A stretch of DNA of 64,000 nt. Origin: an uncultured Pelagibacteraceae bacterium (lineage in GTDB: Bacteria > Pseudomonadota > Alphaproteobacteria > Pelagibacterales > Pelagibacteraceae). The notes under the pieces are model-generated. The model did not search any database. It had not been told where the DNA came from and saw nothing but the letters and a program-made list of their open reading frames with translations. Each line of letters starts with the position of its first letter. The first letter of the stretch is position 1. Where the stretch lies: contig CACOLY010000004.1 in assembly GCA_902628195.1 (NCBI GenBank), positions 183-64,182 on the forward strand. The letters are read 5' to 3'. Below, one piece after another: positions 5,905-21,363 of the stretch. The translations under genes were made by a program, and so were the position numbers.

Positions 5905-6369
5905 ATGGGAAATGTCAAACAATCTATTCTAGCAGGTATATTCTCTATTTTAACAATAGGGATATTAACTTTCTTAACTTACAAAACAGATTTTGGAGTA
6001 TTTTTATTAGCTTCATTTGGTTCATCAATGGTTTTACTTTATGGTTATCCAGAAAGTCCTTTTGCACAGCCAAAAAATGTATTTTTTGGGCACCTGATTA
6101 CTGCAATCGTTGGCTTAATTGTTTTACACTTTGTGCCTTTACCACTTTTTATTATAGTTCCTTTAGCTGTAGGTTTTGGAGTTGGTTTAATGATTTTATT
6201 TAATGTTACTCACCCACCAGCTGGAGGAAACCCCATTATAGTCATAATAGGTAGTGTATCATTTGATTACTTATTAAGCCCAGTAATTACAGGTTCTATA
6301 ATAATAATTATATCTGCAATAATTATTAACCGATTTGTTTTAAAAAAATCTTACCCAAATAAAAAATAA
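5905..6369 (+). CDS. HPP family membrane protein
   Basis: ASFGSS.VL.YG.PESPFAQP.N...GH and THPPAGG signature. Confidence 0.92.
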   Translation: MGNVKQSILAGIFSILTIGILTFLTYKTDFGVFLLASFGSSMVLLYGYPESPFAQPKNVFFGHLITAIVGLIVLHFVPLPLFIIVPLAVGFGVGLMILFNVTHPPAGGNPIIVIIGSVSFDYLLSPVITGSIIIIISAIIINRFVLKKSYPNKK

Positions 6370-6438
6370 TTTATTTGCTAGAGACTTCAAAATAATGTTA
6401 GATGCCTTAAATAAATATTTAAATACACAGGAGAATAA

Positions 6439-9156: not shown

Positions 9157-9855
9157 TTAAAGTGTTTTCCAATTTTTAAAAGGGGTAACTAAATGCTCCA
9201 TATTCTCAGAATTTTTTGCAGCTATAAAAATATCTGCTGATAATGATATCCTATCGTTATTTTTTACATTTGGTTGAGTTTGATGTGATGTTTTTGAGGG
9301 AAAAATCACTATTTCATCCTCTTTAGCCTCAAAAACTATAGCGCCACTATTTGCTATATTTCTTTTCTTGATGATTTCTTTTTTGTTAGAACTTGGTGAT
9401 AAAAATAAACCAGGTAAAAATTCATTATGTTTAGTTTCGTCTACAAAAAGTAAATTTGCATCTCCTTCACTTTTTTTAAGGTAATACGCAAAAGATAAGT
9501 GAGATTGTAAATGTTTATGTAAAGCAATATTTTCTTTTTCCCTTGAAATTGTAGCCCAAGATCTTTGAATAAACATTTCTAATTGATTATGATCAATCTC
9601 AAGAACATTCAAATATTCTATAATAGCTTTTTTTACTTCTAAAAAAAAATCATCAAATATAGGATTATTGTGAATATATTCAAAACCTTGGGTATCTCCT
9701 GTCCATGCACTTGATTGATTCTTATAATCAATATTTTTACTTTTTTTTTCCATAGTAAAAATTTCTTCGATCATTTGCATTTTTTTTTCATTAGTGAGAT
9801 TAATTTTTGATTTAAAAATTGTTAACGGAAAAAAATTTAAAACTTGTCCCATCAA
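9157..9855 (-). CDS. Putative 2OG-Fe(II) oxygenase (TIGR02466-like)
   Basis: FFPL.IF N-terminus, SWAT, HKHLQSHLSFAYY, FPSKTSH, RISLS. Confidence 0.75.
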   Translation of the reverse strand: MMGQVLNFFPLTIFKSKINLTNEKKMQMIEEIFTMEKKSKNIDYKNQSSAWTGDTQGFEYIHNNPIFDDFFLEVKKAIIEYLNVLEIDHNQLEMFIQRSWATISREKENIALHKHLQSHLSFAYYLKKSEGDANLLFVDETKHNEFLPGLFLSPSSNKKEIIKKRNIANSGAIVFEAKEDEIVIFPSKTSHQTQPNVKNNDRISLSADIFIAAKNSENMEHLVTPFKNWKTL

Positions 9856-10955
9856 AGCACGTAAGGTTCAGGTCTAGCTTTTTTACCCAGAACTCTTTCT
9901 ACAGCCATATTTGAAATATCTATGGACTGATAAGCGCCAGTTGTAATTAATTCTGTTAAAGCTCTTCCTATACCTGGCGCCTGCATCAATCCTCGACCAG
10001 TAAAACCTGTGGCTAAATATACATTATCAAATTTTGGATGTTTACCTACTACTGCATTATTGTCTAATCTATTACAATCATAATAACCAGCCCATCCCCC
10101 TGTCAATTTGAGTTCTTCCATTGCAGGTATTCTTTGCGCCAATGCAGGCCAAACAAGTTCTTCAAAATCATCCCATGCAGGTTCGAGGTCATCAGCATCA
10201 AAAACAGATTTTGGTGATCCAGCTAAATATTCTTTTCCTTCCGGTCTCCAATAAACACCAGTAGTCAAATCACCTGTCAAAGGCATTTCGGGAATATGTT
10301 TTGGACACTTTACTCTAAACACAGTATGTTTTTGAGGCTCAACAGGTATATCTTCTAAAAGTTCTTTAGTCCAACATCCCGCAGCTGAAATAATTGTTTT
10401 TGCTTTTATTTCTGAGAGAGATTTAACTTCTCCTTTAACAAATTCAGCGCCAAGTTCTGCAGCTTTACTTTTTAAGGCACTATGAAACATAAAAGGATCA
10501 ATCCAGCCTTCACTTTTGTTATCAGTAAATGTTGCAGTTTCAATTCCATCACAGTTTATATATGGAAAAAATTTTGTTAATTCGGATCCTTTAATATTTT
10601 TTGTTCCAGCTTCACATGCTTTATGATTTTCCAAAGCTTTGTATTGTTCCGCCGCATGTTCTGGACCAAACATCAATAAATATCCATTTGTAACCATACT
10701 TGCTGTTGGTTTAGGATTTTTTTCAGTTTTAAGCAATTCAGGTATTTGAAAAATAAATTCTCTCGCAAATTTTCCAAGTAAAATATTTTCTTTTTGAAAA
10801 AACTGTCTTCTGAAACCACCAAGCGAAAGTGGAAAAGATGCAGATTTATATGTTGGATCTCTTTCTATTACTTTTACTTTTCTGCCCTCTTTAGACAAAA
10901 AATAAGCTGTTGCAGCTCCAATTATACCACCACCAACAATTACAACATCATCCAT
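9852..10955 (-). CDS. FAD-dependent oxidoreductase, DAO/sarcosine oxidase beta family (FOXRED1-like)
   Basis: GGGIIG Rossmann motif, SLGGFRRQF, WAGYYD, ATGFTGRGLMQAPGIG. Confidence 0.88.
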   Translation of the reverse strand: MDDVVIVGGGIIGAATAYFLSKEGRKVKVIERDPTYKSASFPLSLGGFRRQFFQKENILLGKFAREFIFQIPELLKTEKNPKPTASMVTNGYLLMFGPEHAAEQYKALENHKACEAGTKNIKGSELTKFFPYINCDGIETATFTDNKSEGWIDPFMFHSALKSKAAELGAEFVKGEVKSLSEIKAKTIISAAGCWTKELLEDIPVEPQKHTVFRVKCPKHIPEMPLTGDLTTGVYWRPEGKEYLAGSPKSVFDADDLEPAWDDFEELVWPALAQRIPAMEELKLTGGWAGYYDCNRLDNNAVVGKHPKFDNVYLATGFTGRGLMQAPGIGRALTELITTGAYQSIDISNMAVERVLGKKARPEPYVL

Positions 10956-11423
10956 TTAATTTAATATAAATAAGTTAAAATTCAGAAATAGTGCATAGCA
11001 ACACCAAAGTAAATAGGGAATCATTAGATAATAACTTATAAAATTGACACGTTTAAACCTTATAATAAGAATGATTATTAAAGAAATCAGAATCATCAAA
11101 ACTACTAATGCTAAAAATATTTGATGAAAAGCAAAGAAGACAATACTCCAAGTTGTATTAAAAATTATATGAATAAAATAAATATAAACTGTATTCATGT
11201 CTCGATTCTTTGAATGCCAAAAAAACCAAATGGCTAATGTCATCATCAAATACAAAGTAGTCCAGACAGGAGCAAAAACCCAATCAGGTGGATTAAAATT
11301 TGATTTTATAAGCTGTGAATACCAAGGTTCTTTAAAACTAATTGTCGCCATTCCCCCAATAAATGATGCTGAATAAGTAATAATGAAGAATAGAAAAAAC
11401 GATATAAATTTATTTTTTAACAT
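10956..11423 (-). CDS. tspO: TspO/MBR tryptophan-rich sensory protein (likely start MLKNK at 11423; ORF extends to 11441)
   Basis: WY..L.K..FNPP.WVFAPVWT.LY, N..WS.VFF, PYLLW..YA. Confidence 0.92.
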   Translation of the reverse strand: MLKNKFISFFLFFIITYSASFIGGMATISFKEPWYSQLIKSNFNPPDWVFAPVWTTLYLMMTLAIWFFWHSKNRDMNTVYIYFIHIIFNTTWSIVFFAFHQIFLALVVLMILISLIIILIIRFKRVNFISYYLMIPYLLWCCYALFLNFNLFILN

Positions 11424-11447
11424 TATAGTATTATACATCACTATAAA

Positions 11448-12215
11448 ATGAATAAAAAAACTATTTGGATAACAGGTGGAAGCACGGGTATTGGCAAGGC
11501 TTTAGCAGTAAAATTTGCTAGTAAAGGATGGAATGTTGCAATTTCAGCAAGAAGAGAAAATCTACTTAAAGAGATTTCAGATAATAATGAAAATATTCAT
11601 GGATTTCCATTAGATGTAACTGACAAAAAAAGATGTAAAGAAGTTTTTGAACAAATAAGAAATAAATTTCAAAGTGTTGATGTATGTTTTTTTTCTACAG
11701 GAACATGGAATCCAAAAAAAGAAAAAGATATTGATGTTGAACAAATAGAAGATGTATTTAAAGTAAATTTTTTTGGAACATTAAACAGTATCAAGGCTGT
11801 AGAAGAATATTTTAAAAATAAGAAAGAGGGTATCATCACAATTGTTTCATCTATTGCTGGATATAGAGGTTTACCAAATTCAACTGGTTATGGACCCTCA
11901 AAATCAGCATTAAATAATTTAGCAGAAAGTTTATATTTTGATTTTAAAAGATCTAATGTACGAGTTTGCCTTGTATCACCAGGATTTATTAAAACTCCAA
12001 TGACTGATAAAAATGATTTTAAGATGCCTTTTTTAAAAACTACAGACTATGCAGCTGAAAAAATATATGACGGTTTGATAAATAAGAGCGTTTTTGAAAT
12101 TCATTTTCCAAAATCTCTTACTATCATACTTAAAATACTTAGTTTTTTACCAAGTAAAATTTATTTTGCTTTAGTTAGTAAGATGACCAAATATCAAAAA
12201 AAGACTAGTCTTTAA
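11448..12215 (+). CDS. Short-chain dehydrogenase/reductase
   Basis: TGGSTGIG, VSSIAG, YGPSK (YxxxK), SPGFIKTPMT. Confidence 0.92.
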   Translation: MNKKTIWITGGSTGIGKALAVKFASKGWNVAISARRENLLKEISDNNENIHGFPLDVTDKKRCKEVFEQIRNKFQSVDVCFFSTGTWNPKKEKDIDVEQIEDVFKVNFFGTLNSIKAVEEYFKNKKEGIITIVSSIAGYRGLPNSTGYGPSKSALNNLAESLYFDFKRSNVRVCLVSPGFIKTPMTDKNDFKMPFLKTTDYAAEKIYDGLINKSVFEIHFPKSLTIILKILSFLPSKIYFALVSKMTKYQKKTSL

Positions 12216-12753
12216 CAAAGACAACTGTCAATTCAGCAACTTTAAAACCAAATTTAGTCATGGTTGCTTTATTAATTGCAACACGTTCATCTTGTTTGAA
12301 TATCCAATCATCAAATGTAATTTTCATTTCTTTTCCTTTAACTGGAACTAAAAGAACATACTCAAACTTAAATGCTGGTCCATAGGAGTAGCCTTTTGCT
12401 TTTCCAACAACATCACCTGCAGTGCCTTCATAATTATTTTCATCAATTTTATTTATTTGCCATTGTCTGTTTTGAATTTCACCGTCATCCCAATTAAATA
12501 TTTCGTCAAGAATAAGTTGTTTTCCATCCCATTTTCCATTTAAGTCAGCGGAAAACTGTCTTATAACTTTACCAGATCTATTTTGGAGCACACCCCATGC
12601 CTTTACATTTCCTGACAAATATTCCTCAATAATTAATCTAGGTTCTTTATTTTTAAAATCTTCTGGTTTCATAGAGATGTTTTTAGAACAACTTGTAATT
12701 AAGAATAACGAAATTATCAATAAAATTGATTGGATAGATCTTATGTCACGCAT
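12205..12753 (-). CDS. DUF3833 family lipoprotein
   Basis: Lipobox-like LITSC; EEY..G...AWG, L.LDE.F, Y.GTAGDV.G.A, TFDDW motifs. Confidence 0.85.
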   Translation of the reverse strand: MRDIRSIQSILLIISLFLITSCSKNISMKPEDFKNKEPRLIIEEYLSGNVKAWGVLQNRSGKVIRQFSADLNGKWDGKQLILDEIFNWDDGEIQNRQWQINKIDENNYEGTAGDVVGKAKGYSYGPAFKFEYVLLVPVKGKEMKITFDDWIFKQDERVAINKATMTKFGFKVAELTVVFVKD

Positions 12754-12766
12754 TTATTTCCTTTGG

Positions 12767-13945
12767 TTATTTATTTTGAATTGAAAATTGTATTAGATCG
12801 ATATTTTTTGATTTAAAACCAGCTTCACAGTAGCATAAATAAAATTCCCACATTCTTTTAAAAGTTAAATCGAAACCATGATTTTTAATTTTATCCCATT
12901 TTTTATTAAATTCATTTCTCCATAAAGTTAATGTGCTAGAGTAATGATCTGCATAGGAATCATATGATTTTATGCTCAAATCGTTATCTGATACATATTT
13001 ATTTATACTGTTTTTACTTGGAAGGAATCCTCCTGGAAAAATGTATTTTTGAATAAAGTCTTGTTTTTTTTTATATCTATCAAATAAACTATCGTCTATT
13101 GTAATCGCTTGAATAGCAGCAGTACCACTGTGAGCTAAATTTTCTTTAATAGTTTTAAAATAATTTTGTAAATAATTTTGTCCAACTGCTTCTATCATTT
13201 CAATTGAGGCAATGGAGTTATACTTATCTTTTAAATCTCTGTAATCTTTTATTTGAATATTTACTTTTTCATTTAAACCACATTTATAAATTCTTTCTTT
13301 TGCATATTCGTACTGTTTTTTAGAAATAGTGATGCAATCTAACTTTACATCGTATTTTTTTCCTAAATATTCGGCAAACCCTCCCCAACCACATCCGATC
13401 TCCAAAACTTTATCTCCATTCTTAGGTTTGATTAAATTAATTAATTTTTGATATTTATTGTTTTGGGCGTCAGATAAATTTTGATTTTTTTCTTCAAAAA
13501 TTGCGCTTGAGTATGTGAGCGTTTTATCTAACCAAAGTGAAAAAAATTCATTTCCTAAGTCATAATGTTTTGCTATGTTTTCTTTACTTCTATTTTTTGT
13601 ATTTTTTATTAAGACATTTTTAAAAAAATTTATTATTGGTAAATCTAATAATCCTGAAAATTTATAAATTATCTTTATATTTCTGGCAGTGATTTCAATT
13701 AAATTTGATAAATTATTTGTTTCAAATTCATCTCTCATATATGACTCAGCAAAACCAATACTCCCACCTTTAATTAAATTAAACGTAAAGTTAGGTTTCT
13801 TTATTTTTATATAAGCCTTTAAAGAATGTTTAGGATTTCCAAATCTTATAAATTTACCATCTAATTTTTTTATTTCTAAATATCCATTATTAATTTCTTG
13901 TAAAATCTTAAATACTATTTTATCCGAAATACTGTACAAATTCAT
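12767..13945 (-). CDS. cfa: SAM-dependent fatty-acid methyltransferase, cyclopropane fatty acyl synthase family (UfaM-like)
   Basis: NIAKHYDLGNEFF, TYSSA, VLEIGCGWG, SIEMIEAVG, YIFPGG, MWEFYL.YCEAGF. Confidence 0.93.
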   Translation of the reverse strand: MNLYSISDKIVFKILQEINNGYLEIKKLDGKFIRFGNPKHSLKAYIKIKKPNFTFNLIKGGSIGFAESYMRDEFETNNLSNLIEITARNIKIIYKFSGLLDLPIINFFKNVLIKNTKNRSKENIAKHYDLGNEFFSLWLDKTLTYSSAIFEEKNQNLSDAQNNKYQKLINLIKPKNGDKVLEIGCGWGGFAEYLGKKYDVKLDCITISKKQYEYAKERIYKCGLNEKVNIQIKDYRDLKDKYNSIASIEMIEAVGQNYLQNYFKTIKENLAHSGTAAIQAITIDDSLFDRYKKKQDFIQKYIFPGGFLPSKNSINKYVSDNDLSIKSYDSYADHYSSTLTLWRNEFNKKWDKIKNHGFDLTFKRMWEFYLCYCEAGFKSKNIDLIQFSIQNK

Positions 13946-14703
13946 TAATTCTCAAAAGTAATATTATTTTTAATTTTTAATTTTTTCTTTATAAATTTTA
14001 TTCCTTTAGTCCACAATTTAAACGCTTCAAAATGTATCGCTGAAATAATTTTAAATGTCATTAATGGATGTTTTAAATACGATTTCATTAATTCTGCACT
14101 TGTGAGATCTGCTCTTTTACCATCTTGAGAAGCAAATAGTATTTTCTCACTTGATTGATATTGATCAATTATGACTGATATTTTTTCTGAAGGTTTTAAT
14201 ATTCTAAAAAAATAATTACAATTCATTTCAATAAATGGTGAAACATGAAATTTTTTTTCACAATTATGTTGTAAAAGATTATCATTTTCAATTTTAAAAA
14301 TATAAGTATGCTGTTCTCCAAATGTATTTTTAACCTCATATAATATTGAAATTAACTTTTCATTATTATTATAAATATAAAAAACACTTAAAGGATTAAA
14401 TACATAACCTAAAATTCTTGGATAGCATAAAAGTCTAATCTTAATTTCTTCAGCATCTATATTGTTTTCTCTTAAATTTTTTTTTACCCACTCAATAAGA
14501 GATGTTCCATCTCTCTCACCGTGATCTTTATCAAAAAAACTAATAAGGTTAAATCTATTGTAAGAAAAGAAATTAATTTTTTTATCTAAAGTACTTAATT
14601 CTGATAAATCAATTAAAAGTGAAAATACTTTATATCTAAAAAAATGTATCCTTGGTTTGAATCTTTTGTGAACAACTGTACCGTTATAAATTGAACTAAT
14701 CAT
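13945..14703 (-). CDS. DUF1365 family protein (UfaO-like)
   Basis: G.V.H.RF.P..H.F.Y, PRILGYVFNPLS, YEV.NTFGE.H.Y, K.FHVSPF, I...IH.EA..LW.KG. Confidence 0.9.
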   Translation of the reverse strand: MISSIYNGTVVHKRFKPRIHFFRYKVFSLLIDLSELSTLDKKINFFSYNRFNLISFFDKDHGERDGTSLIEWVKKNLRENNIDAEEIKIRLLCYPRILGYVFNPLSVFYIYNNNEKLISILYEVKNTFGEQHTYIFKIENDNLLQHNCEKKFHVSPFIEMNCNYFFRILKPSEKISVIIDQYQSSEKILFASQDGKRADLTSAELMKSYLKHPLMTFKIISAIHFEAFKLWTKGIKFIKKKLKIKNNITFEN

Positions 14704-15934
14704 TAAGGTTTTTTAGCATTTCAATAGATGATTTTATTCCATCTTCATGAAAACCGTAACCAAAATAACTACCACAAAAAAGAATATTTCTTTTATTTTG
14801 TAAATTATTAAGTTTGCTCTGATGATCTAGCGCTAACTGATCAAAGTATGGATGGGTAAATCTTACTTTTTTTAGTATCTTTGATTGATCTATTTCATAA
14901 TAGGGATTTAAAGTAAGAAATATATTATCATCACATTTTAAATTTTGTAATAAATTTAACCAGTATGTGATTGAACTTTTTTCAATCTCATCTTTTTTTA
15001 AAGATGAATTCCATGAACTCCACGTTTTTTTATTTTTAGGCATTGCTTTCTTGTCTGTGTGAATATAAGCAACATTTTCTCTATAACTAAACTTTGATAA
15101 AATTTCTTTTTCCTCATTAGTTGGATTATCAATTAATGACAGTGCTTCATCAGCATGTGTTGCTATAACAACTTTATCATAATTAAAAAACTCGCTTTCT
15201 CCACCATAAAATAAATCTATACCTGAGGATTTACTTTTGATTTTGTTAACAGCATAATTTTTAAAATGTTCTCCACTTATCTTTGAAAGAATATTTTGCA
15301 CATAAGATCTACTTCTGTTTTTAATTGTGTACCATTGAGGTCTATTTTTTAATTTAAATAATCCATGATTTTGAAAAAATTTTAAAAAAAAATTTAATGG
15401 CATTTGATTTGCTTCGTAAGGAGGCATAGACCAAATAGCAGAAACCATAGGAATTAAGTGGTAATTTATAAATTCTTTTGAGAGTTTTTCTTTCTCTAAA
15501 AAATTACCAAGTGTTACATTTTCATTAAACGTATCAAAAGTATCACACTTTTTGTAAAATTGAATTATATCATAAAACATTCTTAAGAATTTAGGATTAA
15601 ATAAATTAGATCTGTTTGCAAATATGCCATTTAATCCTTTGCCACAATACTCAAACATTGTATTTCTTAATGAAACAGAGAAAGACATATCGCTTTTTTC
15701 TAATTCAATTTTATTTTCATTAAAAAATTTAACTAAATTTGGATATGTTCTAAAATTAAAAACAATAAATCCAATATCTACAGCAACTTTTTTAGTACCA
15801 ATGTTTAGATCTATTGTATGTGAATGACCTCCAAAATGATTTCCTTTTTCAAATAAATCAACATGATGATTTTTTGATAAATAATATGCAGCACTTAAAC
15901 CTGAGATTCCTGAGCCAACAACAGCAATTTTCAT
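14696..15934 (-). CDS. FAD/NAD-binding amine-oxidase-family protein (UfaD-like desaturase)
   Basis: KIAVVGSGISGL, GGHSHT, VDIGFIVFN..TYPNL, MSFSVS, W.SWN, CGSYFGYGFHEDG. Confidence 0.9.
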   Translation of the reverse strand: MKIAVVGSGISGLSAAYYLSKNHHVDLFEKGNHFGGHSHTIDLNIGTKKVAVDIGFIVFNFRTYPNLVKFFNENKIELEKSDMSFSVSLRNTMFEYCGKGLNGIFANRSNLFNPKFLRMFYDIIQFYKKCDTFDTFNENVTLGNFLEKEKLSKEFINYHLIPMVSAIWSMPPYEANQMPLNFFLKFFQNHGLFKLKNRPQWYTIKNRSRSYVQNILSKISGEHFKNYAVNKIKSKSSGIDLFYGGESEFFNYDKVVIATHADEALSLIDNPTNEEKEILSKFSYRENVAYIHTDKKAMPKNKKTWSSWNSSLKKDEIEKSSITYWLNLLQNLKCDDNIFLTLNPYYEIDQSKILKKVRFTHPYFDQLALDHQSKLNNLQNKRNILFCGSYFGYGFHEDGIKSSIEMLKNLND

Positions 15935-15940
15935 TAATTG

Positions 15941-18811
15941 CTATGCTGCATCCTCTTTGAATTCATCCATACTTGGACATGTACAAAAAATATTTTTATC
16001 ACCATATACGTTGTCTACTCTTGCAACTGGTGGCCAAAATTTATTAGCTTTTAAAAATTTAGCTGGATAAGCTGCTTCTTGTCTCGTGTATTTGTGTTCC
16101 CAATTATCAGATGCAAGCTCAGAGTCTGTATGAGGAGCATTTTTTATTGGATTATCAACTTTATCAAATTCACCAGATTTAATCTTATCTATCTCTTGTT
16201 TAATCTTTATTAAAGTATCGCAAAATCTATCGAGCTCCGACAAACCTTCACTTTCAGTTGGCTCTATCATCATAGTGCCAGCTACAGGCCATGACATAGT
16301 CGGTGCATGAAATCCAAAATCTATTAATCTTTTTGCGATATCTTCTTCTGTTACTCCTGTTTCTGATTTAATATTTCTAATATCTATAATACATTCGTGT
16401 GCAACATTGCCATTTGAACCTTTGTACAAAATTGGGAAGTGATCTTTTAGTCTATGAGCAATATAATTCGCGTTTAATATTGCAACTTGAGTAGCAAGCT
16501 TTAATCCTGCTGATCCCATCATTTTAATGTACATCCAAGAGATCGAAAGAATACTTGAACTACCCCAAGGAGCTGCTGAAACGGCTCCAATTCCAGTCGT
16601 TGGTCCACAATCTTTTATTACTGGATGATTAGGCAGATAGACTTGTAAATGTTTTTTACAAGCAATAGGTCCCATTCCAGGTCCTCCTCCGCCATGAGGA
16701 ATACAGAATGTTTTATGTAAATTAATATGACAAACGTCTGGACCAAAATTTCCAGGCTTTGCAACTCCAACTAAGGCGTTTAAATTTGCTCCATCCATGT
16801 AGACTTGGCCACCATGTTTATGAACTAACTCACAAATGTCACTTATTTTTTCCTCAAAAACTCCATGAGTAGATGGATAAGTTACCATTAATGCCCCAAG
16901 GTTTTCAGAATGTTGCTCTGCTTTTTTCTTTAAATCATGAAAATCAACATTTCCCTCTTTATCACAATTTATGACAACTACTTTCATTCCAACCATTTGT
17001 GCACTTGCTGGGTTAGTGCCATGTGCTGAACTTGGTATCAAACATATATTACGATTAGCCTCACCTCTATCTAAGTGATACTTTCTGATAACCATTAAAC
17101 CTGCATATTCACCTTGAGCACCTGCATTAGGTTGTAAAGAAACACCTGAAAAACCAGTTATTGATCGCAACCAATTTTTTAGATCAGTAAATAAATCTCT
17201 AAACCCTTCCATTTGTTCAATTGGAACAAACGGATGAGGCTGTGCAAATTCTTTCCAAGAAATTGGTATCATTTCTGCAGCAGCATTTAACTTCATTGTA
17301 CATGAGCCAAGTGCTATCATAGTTCTATTTAATGCTATATCCTTATCCTCTAATCTTTTTAAATACCTTAACATTTCAGTTTCTGAATGATATAAATTGA
17401 AAACTGGGTGTTCCAAATATTTTGAAGTTCTTAATAAATTTTTTGGTAAATTGGGTAAACTTACTGAAGGATCCTCTTTTTTGATTGATTCTGCTGCATT
17501 AAAAATTTTTAATAATTGATTTACTCTATAAACATTTTTTCTCTCATCAAAAGAAACTGCAAGCATTTCGGAATTTACTTTTCTTATATTTACTTTTTGA
17601 TTTAAAGCATTTTTATAAATTTGATCAGTCTTTTCTTTGGTAATAATTGTAACAGTATCAAAAAAATAATTGGAGTAAAGTTCATATCCAGATTGTTTTA
17701 TTTTATCAGCAAAACTTTTTGCTAATTGAGAAACTCTTTCAGAAATATTTTTTATTCCTTCTGGACCATGATAAATAGCATATGCTGCTGAAACAATTGC
17801 TAATAAAGCCTGAGCAGTACAAATATTACTTGTCGCTTTATCTCTTCTGATATGTTGCTCTCTGGTTTGTAAGGATAATCTATAGGCCTTATTTCCATGT
17901 CTATCAACTGATACACCGACAATCCTTCCAGGCATTGATCTTTTGTACTCATCCTTTGTTGCAAAAAAAGCTGCGTGTGGACCTCCATATCCCATTGGAA
18001 TACCAAATCTTTGGGAGCTTCCAACTGCAATGTCGGCACCAAGCTCTCTTGGTGTTTTAAGTTTTGCCAATGCTAACAAATCACAAGCTAATACAGCCTT
18101 ACCATTCTTTTTGTGGATTTTACTAATTGCTTCACTTGGGTCCTTAATATCTCCTAAAGTTCCAGGGTATTGTAAAATCCCACAAACTAAATCTTCCTTT
18201 AACTGGTCTAAAACCTCATTTTCTTTACCAACTAAAACTTTTAACCCCATTGGTTCTGCTCTTGTTTGAATTACATTTATTGTTTGAGGATGACAGTCCT
18301 CAGAAACAAAAACTAAATTACTCTCTTTTTTATTTAATCTGTGACTTAGTCCCATGGCCTCTGCTGCTGCTGTGCCTTCATCTAACAAAGAGGCATTAGC
18401 AATATCCATTCCTGTAAAGTCAACGATCATTTGTTGAAAGTTCAATAACATCTCAAGTCTTCCTTGAGCTACCTCAGGCTGATAAGGTGTATAAGAAGTA
18501 TACCAGCCTGGATTTTCTAATATATTTCTTAAAATTACGTACGGTGTATAAGTTCCATAATAACCCATACCAATAAAATTTGAGTAAACTTTGTTTTTCT
18601 TTGAAATTGATCTTAATTTTCTTAGCGCCTCATATTCAGAATTCGACTCACCGATATTTAGTTCACCTTTAAACAGTATTTTTTCTGGAACAGTGCTGTC
18701 AATTAAGTCATCTAGTGACTGATAATTTAATTCTTTTAACATTTTTAATTGGTCTTCTTTAGAGGGTCCAATGTGTCTTTTTAAAAAATCTTTTTCAGAA
18801 TTAGGTAACAT
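15941..18811 (-). CDS. gcvP: Glycine dehydrogenase (decarboxylating), glycine cleavage P protein
   Basis: F..RHIGP, YTPYQPE.AQGRLE, TSNICTAQALLA, HINLHKTFCIPHGGGGPG, APTMSWPV..TMMIEPTESE. Confidence 0.98.
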   Translation of the reverse strand: MLPNSEKDFLKRHIGPSKEDQLKMLKELNYQSLDDLIDSTVPEKILFKGELNIGESNSEYEALRKLRSISKKNKVYSNFIGMGYYGTYTPYVILRNILENPGWYTSYTPYQPEVAQGRLEMLLNFQQMIVDFTGMDIANASLLDEGTAAAEAMGLSHRLNKKESNLVFVSEDCHPQTINVIQTRAEPMGLKVLVGKENEVLDQLKEDLVCGILQYPGTLGDIKDPSEAISKIHKKNGKAVLACDLLALAKLKTPRELGADIAVGSSQRFGIPMGYGGPHAAFFATKDEYKRSMPGRIVGVSVDRHGNKAYRLSLQTREQHIRRDKATSNICTAQALLAIVSAAYAIYHGPEGIKNISERVSQLAKSFADKIKQSGYELYSNYFFDTVTIITKEKTDQIYKNALNQKVNIRKVNSEMLAVSFDERKNVYRVNQLLKIFNAAESIKKEDPSVSLPNLPKNLLRTSKYLEHPVFNLYHSETEMLRYLKRLEDKDIALNRTMIALGSCTMKLNAAAEMIPISWKEFAQPHPFVPIEQMEGFRDLFTDLKNWLRSITGFSGVSLQPNAGAQGEYAGLMVIRKYHLDRGEANRNICLIPSSAHGTNPASAQMVGMKVVVINCDKEGNVDFHDLKKKAEQHSENLGALMVTYPSTHGVFEEKISDICELVHKHGGQVYMDGANLNALVGVAKPGNFGPDVCHINLHKTFCIPHGGGGPGMGPIACKKHLQVYLPNHPVIKDCGPTTGIGAVSAAPWGSSSILSISWMYIKMMGSAGLKLATQVAILNANYIAHRLKDHFPILYKGSNGNVAHECIIDIRNIKSETGVTEEDIAKRLIDFGFHAPTMSWPVAGTMMIEPTESEGLSELDRFCDTLIKIKQEIDKIKSGEFDKVDNPIKNAPHTDSELASDNWEHKYTRQEAAYPAKFLKANKFWPPVARVDNVYGDKNIFCTCPSMDEFKEDAA

Positions 18812-19191
18812 TATGCTGACGTCTCCTTTGCAAATTTATCGTAATCATCTTTATTCATTAATGTGTCCATTTCAGATGGATCTTTTATTTTAAGTTTAAA
18901 AAACCATGCTGAGTTCTCAGGATCTTGATTAATTTTTGATGGATCATCTACTATGGCTTGATTTGTATCAACTATTTCACCACTAACAGGAGTGTATACA
19001 TCACTAGCTGCTTTCGTCGACTCTACAACTCCAGCTGTTCCATCTTTTTCTACACTAGAGCCTTTTTCAGGCAACTCTGCAAACACTATATCTCCTAACA
19101 TCTCCGTTGCATGCTTTGTTATACCAATGGTTGCAACATCGCCCTCTAATTTTATCCATTCATGTTCTTTTGAGTATTTTACTTCACTCAT
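18811..19191 (-). CDS. gcvH: Glycine cleavage H protein
   Basis: [29 protein letters not shown] (lipoyl-Lys). Confidence 0.97.
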
Positions 19192-20294
19192 TGGTTGACT
19201 CCTTTCACATAACTTTTTTTATAAAATGGTAGACTACAAATACTTGCTGCATGTTTTTTACCTCTTACCTCTAAAAATACTTTAGTATTTTTTTTTGAAA
19301 ATTCATTTTCCACATAACCCATTGCCACAGGTCCATTAACACTTGGCCCAAATGTACCACTAGTGATTTCTCCAATAAGAACATCTGATTGATTGAATAT
19401 TTTTGTTTTTTCTCTTGCTATTATTCTTCCTTCAGGTTTTATTCCAACTCTAATCTTACTTACACCATCAGTTAATTGTTTAATAATTATATCAGAGCCT
19501 ATAAAGTCTCCTTTAGATATTCTTTCTTTTGAGATTGCCCACTTTAAATTTGCTTCTACTGGAGTTTTATCTTTATCAAGGTCATGGCCATATAAACACA
19601 AACCAGCTTCTAACCTTAGAGTGTCTCTTGCTCCTAACCCTACTAACTTAGAACCTTTGTTGATTAATTCTCTGGTTAATCTATCTGCAAAATTATTCGG
19701 GATTGATATTTCAAAACCATCCTCACCTGTATACCCAGATCGAGTAATATATACTTTTTGATTTTCAAATAAGAACCAATTTCCCGACATAAAATTTAGA
19801 TTTTTTACTCCATCAACAATTTCATTTAGTATTTGTGACGATTTTGGTCCCTGAATTGCTATTAAAGATCTATTTACATCCAAAACCATTTTGTGCTTTT
19901 CGTTTAACAATTCCTTTAAAATCTTAAAATCATTGTCTTTACATGCTGCATTAAGAATAATTAAAAAACCCTCATTTATTTTTGTAATTATTAAATCGTC
20001 ATGTATCCCAGCATCTTTATCCATTAAGAAACTGTATTTTGAATGATTTAATTTTAAATTTTTCAAATTTAATGGAAAGATTTTTTCTAAATCTTTAATT
20101 AAATCTTCGCCACCATAAATAAATAATTGACCCATATGTGAAACATCAAAAATACCAGAGTGATTTCTTGTGAATTTATGCTCTTCTACAATGCCTTCGG
20201 AATATTGAATTGGCATTTGATATCCTGCAAATTCAACAAACTTTGCATTACTATCTTTGTGTAATTGGTACAGCGATGTTTTTTTTGTTTCCAT
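19188..20294 (-). CDS. gcvT: Glycine cleavage aminomethyltransferase T
   Basis: [47 protein letters not shown]. Confidence 0.97.
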
Positions 20295-20307: not shown

Positions 20308-20458
20308 ACCCATCTGTATATTTGCCTGAGAGTTTTGCTCCTTCGGCGAGAATTTAATCTCTTTCCAGAGTTAATATGCTACGGTCCTTTTTGCCTGAGA
20401 GATTCCTGGGTGGTTGCTCCTTCGGCGCTACTATCTTCTGTAGTCTCTCCCGTAAAGC
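20308..20458 (-). ncRNA. Tandem glycine riboswitch (two aptamers) in the gcvT leader
   Basis: Minus strand: aptamer 1 GGGAGAGAC...GCGCCGAAGGAGCAA...TCTCTCAGGCAAAAAGGACCG (about 20379-20456); aptamer 2 CTCTGGAAAGAG...CGCCGAAGGAGCAAAACTCTCAGGCAAATATACAGATGGG (about 20308-20371). Both carry the GGAGA/GGAAA, CCGAAGG and CTCAGG signatures. Confidence 0.96.
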
Positions 20459-20484
20459 TATAATCCTACAAGTAGATTAATATG

Positions 20485-21363
20485 TCAATGGGAAATAGTT
20501 TTTTCACTTTTTTTCATAAGTGTATAAAACTGTATTAAAACAGCTAAAAGTATTGTTGCTCCTCCAATTAAACTAAAAATTGAAGGTCTTTCACTAACAA
20601 ATAAAAATGCCCACAAAGGTCCCAAAACAGATTCGGATAGCATTATTATACCAACCATTGCAGACGGCGTAGTTCTTGCACCAATGGTAATAAAAATAAA
20701 TCCAAATCCAATTTGAAAAAAACCAGCTAAGAAACCTAAAAAAATATCATGATAAGAAATCATAATTTTATTTGAAAGAAAGTATCCAATAATACAACAG
20801 CATATACCCGCTACAAATTGCGCGGGAACCATATCAATTGAAGGATATTTTCTTACAATAATAATTAGCACTGCAAATGTAATAGGCATAGAAAAAGCTG
20901 CCAAATTTCCAGTTAACTCTCCAGGAGTTAAGGAATTTCCAACCATGATTAAAACACCAACCATTGCTAAAATTATCGAAAATAATGTTGTAGGGGAAAT
21001 TTTTTCTTTTAAAAAAAAATATCCAAAAACTGCTAAAAATAAAATTTGTAGTGAAATTATGAAATTAGTATTTGCTACAGTAGTACTATACATGGCTACT
21101 ACATAACCACAAAAACCTAAAGACAAAATTACTCCTGCAATAAATCCCGGAAGTCCAGATAAGTAAAATGCATTAAATAATTTTTTTTTGTAAGTAATTA
21201 TTAAAAAAACCAAAACTGTAATGGAGAAAAAAAATGATCGCCAAAATAGTATCTGCCATAAAGTTGCGCCTTCAAAAGATTTAACAATCAGTCCACCAAA
21301 ACTTAAACTTACTGCTCCCAAAAAGACTAAGAAAGGACCAGGTAAATTTTTGATTAAATTCAT
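20485..21363 (-). CDS. DMT/EamA family transporter
   Basis: Ten TM-like segments, FFLKEKIS, SESVLGPLWAFL. Confidence 0.85.
   Translation of the reverse strand: MNLIKNLPGPFLVFLGAVSLSFGGLIVKSFEGATLWQILFWRSFFFSITVLVFLIITYKKKLFNAFYLSGLPGFIAGVILSLGFCGYVVAMYSTTVANTNFIISLQILFLAVFGYFFLKEKISPTTLFSIILAMVGVLIMVGNSLTPGELTGNLAAFSMPITFAVLIIIVRKYPSIDMVPAQFVAGICCCIIGYFLSNKIMISYHDIFLGFLAGFFQIGFGFIFITIGARTTPSAMVGIIMLSESVLGPLWAFLFVSERPSIFSLIGGATILLAVLIQFYTLMKKSEKTISH

Follow-up and report, generated by a model that had tools for sequence, protein, structure and literature searches.

A conserved ufaD-ufaO-ufaM-type gene cluster in SAR11 bacteria and its probable role in methylated furan fatty acid synthesis

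Introduction

Furan fatty acids scavenge singlet oxygen, and a bacterial route to their synthesis has been traced in Rhodobacter sphaeroides and Rhodopseudomonas palustris. In 2020, investigators assigned three R. sphaeroides proteins to that route: UfaM, encoded by the unlinked gene RSP2144; UfaD, encoded by RSP1091; and UfaO, the 250-residue DUF1365 protein encoded by RSP1090, whose family was found to carry out O2-dependent formation of the furan ring in both species (Lemke 2020, PMC7380195). The same study found RSP1089, RSP1088 (186 residues) and RSP1087 (245 residues) to be dispensable for furan fatty acid synthesis, identified the in-cluster gene RPA2569 as the UfaM of R. palustris, and demonstrated that RPA2569-2571 were sufficient for production of the furan fatty acid (FuFA) 9M5-FuFA (PMC7380195). 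Earlier work had described RSP2143-RSP2144 as a photolyase homologue paired with a CFA-synthase homologue, and had placed RSP2143-2144, RSP1091-1087 and the adjacent rpoE-chrR genes within the core sigmaE regulon (Nam 2013, PMC3546557). The present analysis concerns a candidate SAR11 counterpart of this system: a group of four minus-strand genes found in a 64,000-nucleotide stretch of contig CACOLY010000004.1 (assembly GCA_902628195.1, an uncultured member of the Pelagibacteraceae), the whole of which is referred to here as the window. With about 29% GC the window is AT-rich, and its source genome is 1.02 Mb in size and 93%-complete.

An initial annotation of the window had described the UfaM/UfaD/UfaO system of R. 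sphaeroides essentially correctly, as judged against both published accounts (PMC7380195, PMC3546557), and had placed a DUF3833 protein and an SDR beside it, an assignment with which the 186- and 245-residue operon proteins agree in size (PMC7380195). Its further statement that such a pathway had not been reported for SAR11 holds for the library of papers searched, in which no literature linking SAR11 or Pelagibacter to furan fatty acids or to DUF1365 was found.

SAR11 bacteria are the most abundant heterotrophs of the sunlit ocean and possess a light-driven proton pump. In such organisms, a near-core route to singlet-oxygen-scavenging lipids would bear both on the photo-oxidative survival of minimal cells and on the origin of marine furan fatty acids. 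To the knowledge already available on these enzymes, the analysis adds a tree of CMAS clades with a two-by-two table of co-occurrence, a ligand signature together with a caveat drawn from plants, a comparison with the lipids of strain HTCC7211, and the layout from riboswitch to cluster in 21 genomes.

An intact and conserved ufaD-ufaO-ufaM-type cluster

The four genes encode a flavin adenine dinucleotide (FAD) flavoprotein, a DUF1365 protein, a CMAS-family methyltransferase dependent on S-adenosylmethionine (SAM) and a DUF3833 lipoprotein (Table 1), and they probably constitute the form that the bacterial pathway to methylated furan fatty acids takes in SAR11, acting on phospholipid-bound acyl chains; a rough probability of 0.7 is assigned to this reading. 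Judged at the level of sequence, the locus is an intact and conserved cluster of the ufaD-ufaO-ufaM type, whose enzymes and arrangement were already known from other Alphaproteobacteria. The open reading frames (ORFs) and Pfam domains agree with the four-gene operon proposed in the initial annotation, and the convergent SDR and neighbouring tspO that it had named are both present at the locus. From the flavoprotein gene to the DUF3833 gene, successive spacings are an 8-nt overlap, a 1-nt overlap and a 13-nt gap. The gene order is repeated in all 20 other Pelagibacter genomes examined, and a core order of flavoprotein-DUF1365-CMAS(-MFS)-DUF3833/SDR was found across most of 40 alphaproteobacterial families, these being the families in which neighbourhoods were viewed among the DUF1365-bearing members of a survey of one genome per family (n=151). 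Given this recurrence of the full order in Pelagibacter and of the core order across these families, the arrangement is far from chance.

Orthology was assessed through syntenic proxies from three Rhodobacteraceae (a metagenome-assembled genome, Mesobacterium pallidum and Roseovarius conchicola), which were found using a 25-mer primer from the supplement of Lemke 2020; a second primer from that source had no match in the three genomes, and a search of the fetched ORFs for the peptide termini that the primers encode (RPA2569-71, RSP1090/91, RPA0924) gave a single, uninformative match. The cluster proteins of these Rhodobacteraceae have the window proteins as their unique reciprocal best hits. 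The clusters of the three proxies read flavoprotein-DUF1365-(175 aa)-MFS-DUF3833-SDR, or shorter forms of it, and contain no CMAS gene; in 3/3 proxies the CMAS that best matches the window protein is instead encoded directly downstream of a photolyase gene, a pairing that corresponds to the RSP2143-RSP2144 (phrA-ufaM) arrangement of R. sphaeroides. RSP1089, to judge by its size, its position and the hydrophobic N-terminus that the primers specify, more likely matches the MFS gene of such Rhodobacteraceae clusters than a CFA-like gene. Across the 40 families, the typical neighbourhood consists of an optional photolyase gene, then flavoprotein-DUF1365-CMAS-(MFS)-DUF3833, and an SDR that is often convergent. 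Some alphaproteobacterial clusters also carry an ORF of approximately 175 residues without a Pfam match between the DUF1365 and MFS genes (L005:4435-4962, and also at loci L041 and L057), which is absent from the SAR11 cluster.

The distribution of two of the gene families points in the same direction as synteny. DUF1365 occurs in 77/151 alphaproteobacterial families, or about half, and a search of the 151 family genomes with the window CMAS returned a bimodal set of scores, lying either at or above 214 bits or at or below 186 bits. When DUF1365 was tabulated against CMAS genes of the higher-scoring (clade A, see below) level, both were present in 76 families, DUF1365 alone in 1, the CMAS alone in 5 and neither in 69, as would be expected if the CMAS were an obligate enzymatic partner of UfaO. 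Synteny, reciprocal best hits, co-occurrence and the CMAS tree together identify the first three genes as being of ufaD, ufaO and ufaM type.

Conservation bears equally on the suggestion that the genes are decaying remnants with no current function in lipid metabolism. Two observations lean that way, namely that the regulator was not found in a streamlined genome and that the known product is present at no more than trace level in HTCC7211 (both described below); they stand against ORFs that are intact throughout, amino-acid identities of 63-94% for the cluster proteins across 21 genomes of the genus Pelagibacter, a fixed gene order and the retention of conserved family residues, and decay of this kind is regarded as extremely improbable.

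The flavoprotein and the DUF1365 protein

The flavoprotein, whose N-terminus reads MKIAVVGSGISG, belongs to the UfaD family of FAD amine-oxidase/phytoene-desaturase-like proteins and adjoins the DUF1365 gene; it and the Rhodobacteraceae cluster flavoprotein are unique reciprocal best hits in both directions (36% identity, E 1e-88). Of the 70 positions with 93% or higher conservation across 43 alphaproteobacterial homologues, it retains 62. A WxTVxGGS motif at residues 203-208 reads NRS in 21/21 Pelagibacter genomes, and this variant is, by alignment, a lineage change fixed in the genus. In another genus of the Pelagibacteraceae the motif reads NGS.

The DUF1365 protein, a member of the UfaO family, retains all 27 positions whose conservation across 42 homologues is 93% or higher, and is encoded by a single-copy gene in the source genome, as in nearly all genomes searched. 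Among Pelagibacterales genomes of at least 80% completeness its gene is present in 252/301; in the Pelagibacteraceae, the family of the source genome, it is near-core (245/273). A search by sequence for a relative of this protein in the PDB found none.

Two CMAS enzymes of separate lineages

The identity of the methylase could not be read from database names, which offer only cyclopropane synthase or class I methyltransferase; a homologue search with the window CMAS recovered only its SAR11 relatives (Candidatus Pelagibacter entries, 87-99% identity), and its best PDB matches are the CFA synthases 5z9o, 7qos and 6bqc. A tree of 81 CMAS proteins, with branch support from the Shimodaira-Hasegawa-like approximate likelihood ratio test (SH-aLRT), separated two lineages. 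The window CMAS falls in clade A (SH-aLRT 98), together with all 33 main in-cluster CMAS proteins, 3 that are photolyase-linked and 8 from genomes whose cluster has no CMAS. Clade B (SH-aLRT 98) contains only genes sited elsewhere, including a SAR11 paralogue encoded on contig C1 of the source genome, and E. coli Cfa lies outside both clades. Placement in clade A, along with co-occurrence with DUF1365, assigns the window CMAS to the UfaM lineage and not to that of Cfa. Pairwise comparisons follow the same division: the window CMAS shows 38-41% identity (about 310 bits) to the photolyase-linked CMAS of Rhodobacteraceae, whereas its identity to clade B proteins and to E. coli Cfa is 28-33%. The remaining CMAS genes of the three Rhodobacteraceae proxies match the contig C1 paralogue best (44-46%).

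The two lineages also differ at the bicarbonate-ligand positions of Cfa, which in E. coli numbering are C139, E239, H266, I268 and Y317 and whose roles were assigned by Courtois and Ploux 2005, as cited in PMC3132707. All five ligands are retained in 29/29 clade B sequences, the contig C1 paralogue among them. The window CMAS carries S/E/Q/I/Y in place of C/E/H/I/Y (that is, C139S and H266Q) and so departs from the Cfa pattern; throughout clade A, position 266 is glutamine in 44/44 sequences and position 139 is serine, alanine or glycine. Curated NCBIfam equivalog models agree, with the window CMAS scoring below their cut-offs (262 bits where NF008686 requires 400, and 256 where NF053839 requires 600). 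For the model of the Brucella CFA synthase, the contig C1 CMAS reaches 503 bits and the window CMAS 256.

The ligand signature is a clean marker of lineage and is no proof of product. Cyclopropane synthases of Sterculia and cotton consist of an N-terminal FAD-oxidase domain fused to a CMAS domain, and those of cotton carry both C139S and H266Q (PMC3132707). These parallels lend some substance to the view that the in-cluster CMAS is itself a cyclopropane synthase resembling the fused plant enzymes, with the flavoprotein and DUF1365 protein modifying cyclopropane or other chains, and the abundance of 17:0 cyclo in HTCC7211 (PMC6528590) could be cited in the same sense. That abundance is already accounted for by the canonical, five-ligand Cfa of clade B, a strong match to Brucella Cfa that is present in 78/82 near-complete Pelagibacter genomes, and those bacterial clusters of this arrangement that have been studied experimentally yield methyl-olefin and furan products (PMC7380195). 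A cyclopropane-forming role for the in-cluster enzyme is accordingly considered very unlikely.

The Brucella-type Cfa gene of contig C1 (L009:7620-8807, minus strand) has as neighbours genes for a 396-residue protein (L009:6400-7590) and a 97-residue protein (6077-6370), neither with a Pfam or NCBIfam match. No second methylase of the FufM type was found in the source genome, which contains only two strong CMAS genes, other PF02353 matches scoring 42 and 20 bits. Two other alphaproteobacterial genomes have an extra, very divergent CMAS beside their ufaD-ufaO-ufaM cluster (L043:4866-6098 and L023:2263-3357, both on the minus strand); these occupy a long, separate branch of the tree and may be FufM-like second methylases.

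Predicted chemistry and the lipids of SAR11

By analogy with the described systems, synthesis would proceed in three chemical steps. The clade A, UfaM-type CMAS would use SAM to methylate a cis-monounsaturated chain, giving a methyl-branched, trans-unsaturated chain; the UfaD-type flavoprotein would then introduce a second, conjugated double bond; and the UfaO-type DUF1365 protein would insert an oxygen atom derived from O2, closing the furan ring. Conserved accessory roles would fall to the DUF3833 lipoprotein and the SDR, and cyclopropane acids would be made by the separate Brucella-type Cfa encoded elsewhere in the genome. The likely substrate is 18:1 Δ11, and possibly the dominant 16:1 Δ9.

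The only SAR11 fatty acid profile found is that of HTCC7211, grown at a light intensity of 2 umol photons m-2 s-1, in which 45.8% of fatty acids were 16:1 cis9, 17.7% 16:0 and 11.9% 17:0 cyclo9-10, with minor amounts of '18:1 cis11 11methyl' (0.8%) and '19:1 cis12' (0.7%) and about 14% not itemised (PMC6528590). The occurrence of 11-methyl-18:1, the product of a UfaM-type enzyme, beside 17:0 cyclo fits the presence of two distinct CMAS enzymes. It had been proposed at the outset that this organism makes furan or methyl-branched fatty acids rather than cyclopropane ones; the second, Brucella-type Cfa and the 11.9% of 17:0 cyclo9-10 indicate that SAR11 does make cyclopropane acids, so the 'rather than' does not stand.

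Several observations weigh against the assignment of a furan fatty acid pathway. Orthology to RSP2144, RSP1090/1091 and RPA2569-2571 was established through syntenic proxies at the level of the family. The SAR11 flavoprotein differs at 8 of the 70 conserved positions, including a GG-to-NR change, and these differences are fixed across the genus. The Q266/S139 signature of clade A is shared with cotton enzymes that do form cyclopropane rings, and therefore does not prove methyl-olefin chemistry. The HTCC7211 profile lists no furan fatty acid, and 18:1 cis11, the usual precursor, was not detected there (PMC6528590). In three of the 20 Pelagibacter genomes, finally, the methylase gene is separated from ufaO by a putA gene and an Lrp gene.

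Some of these same points would be explained if the pathway stopped early in SAR11, with the methylase and possibly the desaturase yielding small amounts of methyl-branched or diene chains without accumulation of furan acids; such acyl chains might then adjust membrane properties or serve as signals sensitive to oxidation. The 0.8% of 11-methyl-18:1 and 0.7% of '19:1 cis12' in a profile that lists no furan acid, the genus-fixed changes in the flavoprotein and the split of the methylase from ufaD-ufaO in 3/20 genomes all suit a truncated route. Such truncation is nevertheless thought unlikely: the DUF1365 protein, on which ring closure would depend, keeps every one of its 27 conserved residues and has been kept by about 90% of Pelagibacteraceae even though their genomes are extremely streamlined, and the published culture was grown in very little light, with a seventh or so of its fatty acids left out of the itemised list. 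A complete pathway ending in furan fatty acids remains the preferred reading.

Position behind the glycine cleavage genes

The cluster is not free-standing, since the flavoprotein ATG lies 6 nt past the gcvP stop codon. Across 21/21 Pelagibacter genomes the gap between gcvP and the flavoprotein gene is 6-14 nt, and the order gcvT-gcvH-gcvP-flavoprotein-DUF1365-CMAS-DUF3833, followed by SDR, TspO and DAO genes, is fixed. A glycine riboswitch heads the string of genes from gcvT to DUF3833. The best-scoring match to a promoter consensus in the region, TTGACA-17-GATTAT, is a consensus match only and carries no evidence of function; the scan returned fewer promoter-like sites in the region than in shuffled sequences, and no terminator-like site in the stretch running from gcvP to the cluster's end. 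The final 60 gcvP codons, examined for signs of an embedded promoter, showed no excess conservation at synonymous sites (z at most 1.5). From this layout, co-transcription of the cluster with gcvTHP is plausible.

The insertions noted above set a limit on how tightly the genes are bound together: because putA and an Lrp gene intervene in 3/20 genomes, the block is not an indivisible operon. The insert (L108:8994-12620, and also at L109 and L113) comprises a bifunctional putA of 1011 residues, with Pro_dh and Aldedh domains, and a divergent regulator of the Lrp/AsnC family.

The initial annotation had associated the genes with photo-oxidative stress control, and this part of it was not borne out. 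A search of the 93%-complete genome for the sigmaE-ChrR switch returned only two Sigma70_r2 matches, of the size of RpoD and RpoH, and no Cupin_7 match of the ChrR type. Cupin_7 matches in other Pelagibacterales are mostly stand-alone proteins of 115-150 residues. Two Pelagibacteraceae genomes of other genera encode double-Cupin_7 (ChrR-type) proteins of 223-232 residues (G080:C1:95048-95671 and G087:C13:261745-262365). The features particular to the lineage are thus that no sigmaE-ChrR switch was found and that the cluster has a fixed site behind riboswitch-controlled glycine cleavage genes.

A tentative extension, which at present is considered doubtful, is that one long transcript runs from the glycine riboswitch through gcvT-gcvH-gcvP-ufaD-ufaO-ufaM-DUF3833, so that the supply of glycine and SAM would set lipid methylation, and that a C17 furan acid is the main product. 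That product could be of the 7M5 type because 16:1 cis9 dominates SAR11 membranes. If this were so, glycine and one-carbon (SAM) supply, and not the sensing of singlet oxygen, would set the methylation and oxidation of membrane lipids, and SAR11 would constitute a large, unrecognised marine source of short-chain furan acids.

Accessory and neighbouring genes

The features of the locus are collected in Table 1. The DUF3833 protein has a lipoprotein signal peptide ending in ...LITS|C (lipobox ITS|C) and retains 15/15 conserved family positions. The convergent SDR gene, whose end overlaps the end of the DUF3833 gene by 11 nt, adjoins the cluster in 20/20 Pelagibacter genomes and in most alphaproteobacterial clusters. 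The tspO gene likewise adjoins the cluster in 20/20 Pelagibacter genomes, and is near it in only 1 of the 40 other families. It is divergent from the SDR gene, with 6-24 nt between their start codons depending on which tspO start is used (window 11421-11448), so each promoter must sit within the opposite gene; the true tspO start is probably an in-frame ATG at 11438 or 11423 rather than the GTG at 11441. Following tspO on the same strand (window 9157-10955) are genes for a DAO-family FAD oxidoreductase of 367 residues and a 2OG-Fe(II) oxygenase-like TIGR02466 protein; the DAO gene keeps its position next to tspO in 20/20 Pelagibacter genomes.

Table 1. Genes and regulatory features of the candidate furan fatty acid locus, in window coordinates
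Feature	Position	Strand	Match
ufaD-type FAD flavoprotein, 412 aa	14696-15934	-	Pfam NAD_binding_8 / Amino_oxidase
ufaO-type DUF1365 protein, 252 aa	13945-14703	-	PF07103, 265 bits
ufaM-type CMAS-family SAM methyltransferase, 392 aa	12767-13945	-	PF02353, 283 bits
DUF3833 lipoprotein, 182 aa	12205-12753	-	PF12915, 203 bits
SDR, 255 aa, convergent	11448-12215	+	adh_short, 154 bits
tspO, tryptophan-rich sensory protein / porphyrin-binding	10956-11441	-	PF03073, 130 bits
gcvT-gcvH-gcvP, directly upstream, same strand	15941-20294	-	TIGR00461 gcvP 1447 bits; gcvH 164 bits
Glycine riboswitch aptamer	20372-20462	-	Rfam RF00504, 64 bits (gathering score 32)
Promoter-like site TTGACA-17-GATTAT, just upstream of riboswitch	20460-20488	-	consensus match 10/12

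Comparison with known systems

Cfa of the E. coli or Brucella type (NF053839) shares with the window enzyme the CMAS fold and a SAM-dependent chemistry that acts on cis double bonds of phospholipid-bound chains, but two of the five bicarbonate ligands are missing from the window enzyme, and the Cfa-like enzyme of the source genome is the CMAS of contig C1. The plant cyclopropane synthases resemble the SAR11 cluster in pairing a UfaD-like FAD domain with an S139/Q266 CMAS domain; they differ in that the two are fused in one polypeptide, that no DUF1365 partner is part of the fusion, and that the product is a cyclopropane.

Among the furan fatty acid systems, the RSP1091-RSP1087 operon of R. sphaeroides is similar in bringing together UfaD, UfaO and proteins of DUF3833 and SDR size, and the DUF3833 lipoprotein and the SDR of SAR11 are, by position and size, the counterparts of RSP1088 and RSP1087, respectively. 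In R. sphaeroides the methylase is unlinked and lies behind a photolyase gene, whereas that of SAR11 lies within the cluster; and while the R. sphaeroides operon adjoins rpoE-chrR and is induced by singlet oxygen, the SAR11 cluster follows gcvP and has no MFS gene. R. palustris possesses an additional FufM (RPA0924) for dimethyl furan acids, to which no comparable third CMAS corresponds in the SAR11 genome. Its RPA2571-RPA2570-RPA2569(-RPA2568) genes in strain CGA009 otherwise follow the order seen in SAR11, that is, flavoprotein, DUF1365, in-cluster CMAS and one further gene, a likeness of gene order and gene family.

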